Positions 5,815 to 6,415 of a stretch of DNA of 15,489 bases are shown here, in pieces. Made by a program: the position numbers and the translations under genes. The stretch is from the UHGV virus genome UHGV-0097030. One strand, 5' to 3'. The notes beneath the pieces were generated by a model. It saw only the letters and a list, made by a program, of their open reading frames with translations. It searched no databases and was not told the DNA's origin. The first letter of the stretch is position 1; the number at the start of each line of letters is the position of its first letter. The DNA is from a virus.

Positions 5815-6147
5815 TCAATCGTAATAAGCTGGAATTGATTTTCCGCGTTGCTTCTGGCGACCAACACAAGTCACACCCATTTCACTGCGTGGCTTGCTGT
5901 ACCATGTGCGCTGATTCTTGCGTTCAATACGTTGCAGGTTGCTTTCAATCTGTTCGTGGTATTCAGCCAGCACCGTAAGGTCTATCGGATTCAGTGCGCT
6001 TTCTACTCGTGATTTCGGTTTGCGATTCAGCGAGAGAATAGGGCGGTTAACTGGTTTTGCGCTTACCCCAACCAACAGGGGATTTGCTGCTTTCCATTGA
6101 GCCTGTTTCTCTGCGCGACGTTCGCGGCGGCGTGTTTGTGCATCAAT
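5815..6147 (-). CDS. N: Antitermination protein N (lambda-type), with ATT at the expected start codon
   Basis: Track ORF 5815..6075 begins at a TTG (LVGVSAKPVNRPILSLNRKPKSRVESALNPIDLTVLAEYHEQIESNLQRIERKNQRTWYSKP...), matching lambda N residues 25 onward. The in-frame upstream codons encode DAQTRRRERRAEKQAQWKAANPL, the lambda N arginine-rich motif. The codon at 6145-6147 that corresponds to lambda's ATG is ATT. The lambda-like SD (CAGGAGAATCCAG) is present. Confidence 0.75.
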   Translation of the reverse strand: MDAQTRRRERRAEKQAQWKAANPLLVGVSAKPVNRPILSLNRKPKSRVESALNPIDLTVLAEYHEQIESNLQRIERKNQRTWYSKPRSEMGVTCVGRQKQRGKSIPAYYD

Positions 6148-6415
6148 CTGGATTCTCCTGTCAGTTAGCTTTGGTGGTGTGGTGGCTGGTAGTCTAGCTC
6201 CAGCTTGTTGAGTCTCATTCGGAGGGGTATAACCGGCACCCCAGTGATTTTTCCATGCGACAACGTGCGCGTTATGGCGGCCTTATCGCCCGCGGCTCCC
6301 CATCTCGTCCACGCTATTGCTAGCGTTGGGAGCGCTTCACCGCTCAACAGTAGGTAAGCACTTGCCAGTGACTAGCTGGCTTCACCACACCCCAAAGCCT
6401 TCTGCTTTGAATGCT

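Follow-up and report, generated by a model that had tools for sequence, protein, structure and literature searches.

An AUU codon in place of the AUG start of antiterminator gene N in a lambdoid prophage: a probable recent hypomorph or null allele

Knock-down of N in phage lambda lowers the efficiency of plating to 1.8e-4, and N is therefore essential for plaque formation (PMC10695390). Prophages are known to become grounded through loss of N (PMC6379469). Initiation at AUU, AUC, AUA or CUG reaches 1-2% of that at AUG when measured with sfGFP and 0.02-3% when measured with NanoLuc, and the confirmed AUU-initiated genes of E. coli are infC and pcnB only (bioRxiv 10.1101/063800). Messages that begin with AUU are less active than AUG messages and compete poorly with them, the effect varying with context, temperature, nutrients and IF3 (PMC5499595).

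The window (the whole stretch of DNA analysed, 15,489 nucleotides) comprises the early region of a lambdoid prophage. Sf6, HK and mEp phages are related to this mosaic region, whose features are collected in Table 1. N is the first gene of the pL operon, beside the immunity region. The leftward genes are N, a DUF5484 peptide, a 149-aa membrane-like protein, Erf, an anti-RecBCD protein, Ea22 and Lar. On the other side, the rightward genes further include cII, T5orf172, an O-like initiator and a DnaC-like loader, followed by nin genes (among them NinB, an HNH endonuclease, NinE, NinF, RusA and NinH) and a holin. Terminator-like hairpins were found on the transcribed strand of both early operons. 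A boxB is present at both nutL and nutR, where zero copies would be expected by chance; the boxA of nutR is canonical, and that of nutL departs from it by one mismatch. In the second ATT-bearing contig described below (L004) the nutL boxA reads TGCTCTTA, and the variant base of the nutL boxA is not private to the window phage. When the window was searched for further decay in the form of frameshifts, deletions or IS elements, none was found, and the early ORFs are all open and tightly packed.

Table 1. Features of the prophage early region, by position in the window
Feature	Position	Strand	Basis or remark
Two further pL-operon terminator-like hairpins	4541-4524, 4503-4484	-	pattern scan only
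Terminator-like hairpin, pL operon, downstream of N and the 149-aa gene	5143-5160	-	pattern scan only
N reading frame, 110 codons, stop at 5817-5815	5815-6147	-	Pfam PF11438 (N36), phrog_271
+1-frame ORF, (L/M)MHKHAAANVAQRNRLNGKQQIPCWLG	6063-6146	-	new TTG 6146-6144, ATG 6143-6141 directly after; TAA 6065-6063
First canonical in-frame start of N, TTG at codon 25	6073-6075	-	ORF 5815-6075; product would lack the arginine-rich motif
Arginine-rich motif, residues 2-22, DAQTRRRERRAEKQAQWKAAN, boxB-binding part	6082-6144	-	N36 profile positions 1-35 matched
ATT at the N start-codon position	6145-6147	-	T at 6145 where relatives have G; N starts of Sf6 and E. coli 873.10 align here
Shine-Dalgarno GGAG	6155-6158	-	7-nt spacer to ATT; same as lambda and Sf6
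Structured N leader	6167-6414	-	predicted stem, GGCUUUGGGGUGUGGUG (6399-6383) with CACCACACCACCAAAGCU (6184-6167)
nutL: boxA-like GGCTCTTA (6446-6439), boxB GCCCTGAAGAAGGGC (6430-6416)	6416-6446	-	boxB same as lambda nutL boxB
pL-like promoter, TTGACT-17-TACTAT	6486-6514	-	consensus scan only
cI-type repressor, HTH_3 and Peptidase_S24, 231 aa	6640-7335	-	domain match
Cro-type HTH protein, 71 aa	7411-7626	+	domain match
nutR: boxA CGCTCTTA (7635-7642), boxB GCCCTGAAAAAGGGC (7652-7666)	7635-7666	+	boxB same as lambda nutR
Terminator-like hairpin, pR operon, upstream of the nin region and Q (tR2-like)	10693-10717	+	pattern scan only
Lambda-type Q antiterminator, 207 aa	14114-14737	+	PF03589, 193 bits
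pR'-like promoter	14780-14808		downstream of Q
tR'-like terminator	14842-14870		downstream of Q

A 214-aa gene of the T5orf172/MUG113 type (GIY-YIG-like; 8059-8703, +) lies between cII and the O-like gene, within the pR operon, and a 200-aa NUMOD4/HNH_3 homing-endonuclease-like gene (12123-12725, +) lies between NinB and NinE; the exact protein encoded by the latter occurs in 2,092 blocks and is widespread in lambdoid prophages. Searches for the late region of the prophage with this 200-aa HNH protein, an 84-aa nin protein and cI led to other genomes, as these proteins are too common. Just past the window lie an excisionase-like gene and an integrase gene. In contig L165 (16067-20450, past the left end of the window) this locus consists of the excisionase-like gene of 66 aa, a 273-nt gap, a 424-aa integrase with P4-type domains (Arm-DNA-bind_3 and Phage_int_M), AlpA and DUF5375. 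It may be a P4-like satellite or island that abuts the prophage, so that the integrase may not be the lambdoid phage's own. A tRNA gene was looked for in this L165 locus and not found.

The codon at which N should begin reads ATT, with T at position 6145 (minus-strand text caGGAGaatccagATTgatgcacaaacacgccgccgcgaa and caGGAGaatccagATTgatgcacaaacacgccgccgcgaacgtcgc; 30-mer that marks the ATT allele, GGAGAATCCAGATTGATGCACAAACACGCC). Alignment placed ATG at this codon in all three references, Sf6 gene 37, N of E. coli 873.10 and lambda (J02459), and the G-to-T change at 6145 was the sole difference from them over ~80 nt on and about this codon. In the annotations of Sf6 and 873.10, N starts precisely here. 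A sequence-only reading of the locus had held that ATT replaces lambda's ATG, downstream of a lambda-like Shine-Dalgarno sequence and ahead of an intact frame with its arginine-rich motif, and all of this was borne out: the start codon of lambda and lambdoid N does fall here, the GGAG is that of lambda, and 110 codons are open and match the N36 profile (PF11438, residues 2-36, 91.9 bits against a cut-off of 25; phrog_271, E = 2.8e-26). From the ATT the frame encodes IDAQTRRRERRAEKQAQWKAAN…. It is closed upstream by a stop codon, and a search for in-frame ATG, GTG or TTG codons between this stop and the TTG at codon 25 found none. The one ATG close by is in the +1 frame, again as had been claimed, and the TTG made by the mutation is out of frame as well. 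With ATT at the aligned start, N thus has no canonical codon ahead of codon 25 at which its translation could begin.

A single base in a metagenome-assembled contig might be an error of sequencing or assembly, the real phage having ATG, and G-to-T changes are a class of artefact that arises from oxidative damage. The evidence argues strongly against this, the third possibility that the sequence-only reading had raised. Over its full length the window matches, at 100% identity, a 64-kb metagenome contig in ENA (ERZ27272277 k119_36919), from which it probably derives. The same base is present in a separate SPAdes assembly (ERZ1303435 NODE_4913, L132), a contig of 5,411 nt from two samples with a k-mer coverage of ~21x, which is 100% identical to window 1640-7050. 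ATT was found for a third time in an unrelated, isolate-derived IMG/VR contig that carries an imm434 mosaic (2740892229_000006; L004), and there is no other population allele with T that could have been mis-merged. As ATT occurs both in an independent assembly and in L004, a sequencing error is very unlikely. Two or three assemblies are firmly ATT, among groups of similar contigs in which the ATG and ATT forms are lumped together.

The frequency of the variant was assessed with a 69-nt probe centred on the start codon. The probe located 895 places in 841 of the 5,426 complete E. coli genomes, together with 52 phage records. None of the 895 places and none of the 52 records matched the ATT form exactly, the best matches all having one mismatch, in a count that misses any ATT copy with a second mismatch nearby. 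Scans for the exact ATT pattern returned nothing from GTDB species representatives or from JGI metagenome contigs. In IMG/VR, ATT was found in one contig as compared with at least 120 that have ATG, and when all nine single-base variants of the start codon were scanned in that database, the one ATT contig alone was recovered. Among 161 related sequences that cover position 6145, 160 have G and one has T. The nearest relatives with ATG (L126) are 99.7-99.9% identical to the window over shared segments. From the pL promoter to the end of N (6530-5800), the window phage has a single private base with respect to its relatives, L004 aside, namely T6145, and no accompanying change was found in the Shine-Dalgarno sequence, the leader or nutL. 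Since T6145 is the sole private base in this interval, nothing there compensates for it. AUU is not conserved among N orthologues. The variant is genuine and very rare.

The remainder of the gene is undamaged. Residues 2-110 of N are identical to a widespread ATG-initiated allele, the M-initiated form of which is present in 870 blocks of the assembly collection, and the reading frame is without further decay. An undecayed frame would fit a very recent event and would equally fit continued selection on a functional gene; taken with the intact early region, it suggests either that the event was recent or that the allele is still partly functional. Lesions of N are not confined to this prophage, as three truncated forms were seen among ~137 members of the same allele population, along with frameshift and fusion forms. 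With other N lesions present at a few percent, loss of the start codon fits the ordinary background of prophage decay. The lesions comprise truncations of N to 37 or 52 aa (among L013, L103, L110, P0059, P0039, P0077, P0087, P0092 and P0095), a fusion of the +1-frame ORF (MHKHAAANVAQRNRLNGKQQIPC) to the body of N, and several proteins in which an N body follows a foreign N-terminus and the arginine-rich motif is missing.

The products that a gene caller would make from ATT contigs (86 aa from the TTG at 6075, a 52-aa GTG form, an 84-aa L004-type form and an I-initiated 110-mer) were searched for in the protein collection and none is on record, so that they are unusable for counting such contigs. 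N-terminally extended N proteins were considered as a proxy for start mutants and rejected. Every long form keeps M at the N start, and these are therefore over-extended gene calls rather than mutants.

We consider it probable that the AUG-to-AUU change has recently turned N into a severe hypomorph or null, in a prophage that is otherwise intact through its early region. Of the two functional readings that had been proposed from the sequence, a crippled N and an N deliberately attenuated by a rare AUU start, the evidence leans to loss of function or hypomorphy, because ATT is essentially absent from more than 1,000 loci, because the Shine-Dalgarno sequence, leader and nut site are unchanged, and because competing out-of-frame starts have been created. 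The analogy with infC on which the second reading drew fails for want of AUU conservation. Most likely the point mutation is of an ordinary kind that inactivates or strongly attenuates its gene; it provides a new allele of a well-known gene and no new system.

The arrangement of the start region suggests how N synthesis would fail. With the Shine-Dalgarno sequence unchanged, 30S subunits would still load, and AUU, as a poor initiator, would be used at a few percent of the AUG level or less. The +1-frame ORF of 26-27 codons begins at UUG, one base downstream of AUU and 8 nt from the GGAG, or at AUG, four bases downstream and 11 nt from it. We infer that these two codons would compete for ribosomes and would take most of the initiation, yielding an out-of-frame peptide of 26-27 residues, and that ribosomes re-initiating at the codon-25 UUG would make a protein devoid of the RNA-binding motif. 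Given a weak AUU, competing +1 starts and the lack of an in-frame canonical start before codon 25, N protein would be expected to fall by one to two orders of magnitude or more. Expression of Q would depend on N-mediated readthrough. Because the nut boxB elements, the terminator-like hairpins and the lambda-type Q wire the phage for N, delayed-early and late expression after induction would be strongly reduced, and the prophage would probably be poorly inducible or grounded. Single amber mutants of N are classically leaky, and a few percent of N may still support some growth; for this reason we describe the allele as a severe hypomorph or null rather than as a proven null.

N might instead be translated from some other start, or might be dispensable to the phage. 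Candidate starts are an in-frame AUC at 6153-6151, the codon-25 UUG reached by re-initiation, and an upstream start of the kind available in L004. The stop of the +1-frame ORF lies 8 nt past the in-frame TTG at 6075, and in L004 an in-frame TTG is found upstream with no stop between it and N. However, the AUC is only 1 nt from the Shine-Dalgarno sequence, the codon-25 product would be without the arginine-rich motif, and the window has an in-frame upstream stop and no canonical start. Dispensability of N fits poorly with the nut sites, the terminator-like hairpins and the long nin region upstream of Q, all of which favour N dependence. These explanations are very unlikely.

The leader was folded with each form of the codon. 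In the predicted fold of the ATG form, UGGAUGC across the start pairs perfectly with GCAUUCA at 6414-6408, directly 3' of the nutL boxB, and the N start would therefore sit at the foot of the long leader stem, which in lambda corresponds to the RNase III-sensitive structure. The G-to-U change breaks one C-G pair and shifts the predicted minimum free energy from -126.7 kcal/mol (ATG) to -123.4 kcal/mol (ATT), a difference of +3.3. The slightly weaker structure predicted around the start could partly offset the poor codon. No annotated RNA family was found within the window in Rfam.

Two possible templates for the mutation were considered. The quasi-palindrome of the leader (GCATTCA / TGGATGC) was rejected as a template, since the mutation costs the repeat one pair instead of perfecting it. 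The mutant 8-mer CAGATTGA (6143-6150, -) is the same as an internal 8-mer of N at 5945-5952 (-), ~200 nt downstream (…gaaCAGATTGAaagc, codons HEQIE). If misaligned with the start, this internal copy might in principle serve as a template for G-to-T changes that recur; a match of this length between the N start and the N interior is close to chance expectation in 15 kb.

The second ATT context is a different mosaic. L004 has a 434-type cI, a primase-helicase replication module, and an N leader and N C-terminus unlike those of the window. Its 322-nt N core has one synonymous difference from that of the window and shares the ATT. Shared derived SNPs were looked for between the two alleles as proof of common descent, and none was found, because both alleles sit on the commonest N-core allele. 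With both copies on this commonest allele and no derived base in common, descent from one ancestor followed by recombination is indistinguishable from independent recurrence. In L004 a 138-aa ORF (5315-5731, +), which starts at the in-frame TTG 28 codons upstream, was called instead of N; among the 15 billion proteins of the collection searched, it occurs on this contig alone.

Recurrence of ATT in two mosaics, with no other start variant in IMG/VR, is an observation that speaks against a simple loss of N, as it could mean that ATT is tolerated or selected. AUU might then be a functional start that acts as an attenuator, keeping N low and gating it by initiation fidelity (IF3, growth state and temperature) in the manner of infC and pcnB. 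Such a start would raise a physiology-gated threshold for commitment to lytic growth. Consistent with selection rather than coincidence, ATT is the sole start variant seen and is seen in two contexts, the Shine-Dalgarno sequence and its spacing are optimal and unchanged, and the N coding sequence is undamaged. The activity of AUU messages does vary with temperature, nutrients and IF3 (PMC5499595), and in E. coli regulators a start other than ATG can be of adaptive value (PMC11445065). Were AUU functional here, it would be the third case of AUU initiation in the E. coli world and a new tuning of the lysis-lysogeny switch. However, the codon is not conserved across the E. coli loci, phage records and IMG/VR contigs surveyed, the L004 form is the singleton noted above, and no co-adapted changes accompany it. 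The mutation also created out-of-frame UUG and AUG competitors within reach of the Shine-Dalgarno sequence, which a selected start would be expected to avoid, and the two occurrences share no other derived base, so that there is no sign of a persisting lineage. Beyond the two-fold recurrence, a functional AUU is unsupported, and we regard both the selected start and the raised threshold as quite unlikely.

The same recurrence bears on the possibility that N is null in cis and the prophage remains mobile, either through N supplied in trans by a co-resident prophage with lambda-type N or through recombination that rescues or spreads the allele. A co-resident prophage of this kind could rescue the mutant, since the boxB elements of nutL and nutR are the same as lambda's. 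Complementation in trans is plausible because about one in four complete E. coli genomes has lambda-type N (1,392/5,426, with up to four copies per genome). The block shared by the two ATT mosaics is the N core alone. Against this, no co-resident helper was identified for the source genome, and transfer by recombination is unsupported in that the two ATT contexts share no other marker. This explanation is unlikely, and crippling of N by its start codon is preferred.

If N is crippled, the locus would be a clean natural example of the first step in prophage domestication, in which one base disables the master early switch and every other gene is still intact. Annotation tools would score prophages of this kind as intact, and yet they would be poorly inducible. 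The gene caller used on the public contig reported no gene between cI and the 149-aa gene (L165 8975-10001, equal to window 5614-6640), skipping both N and the 45-aa DUF5484 ORF (window 5669-5806). Automated annotation would therefore silently miss the N gene of this prophage.

The gene belongs to the lambda N family. It has the same Shine-Dalgarno sequence, arginine-rich motif and boxB sites, the same position downstream of pL and nutL, the N36 domain, and a leader with the same long stem. Near-identical N is found in Sf6 (gene 37), HK544, mEp043 and Sf101, and the DNA is 98-99% identical to N of Sf6, Sf101 and HK544. It differs from lambda N in its start, ATT rather than ATG, and in its C-terminal tail (…KQRGKSIPAYYD), which is of the Sf6 type and not lambda's. 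Like infC and pcnB, it has AUU at a proper distance from the Shine-Dalgarno sequence in a dose-sensitive gene. In those genes, however, AUU is conserved, and infC is autoregulated by IF3, whereas the AUU of the window occurs rarely, at a position where AUG is otherwise invariant, and is adjoined by canonical out-of-frame starts. A further parallel is with grounded or defective lambdoid prophages in which N function is lost, for example those of E. coli O157 EDL933 and the cryptic prophages of K-12, in which an essential early regulator is likewise disabled in an integrated prophage (PMC6379469); here, too, the lesion lies in a gene essential for lytic growth, the start codon of N having been lost. 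In contrast to those prophages, a single base of a start codon is affected and the rest of the 15.5-kb early region is intact, and for that reason the window would represent the earliest stage of such decay.
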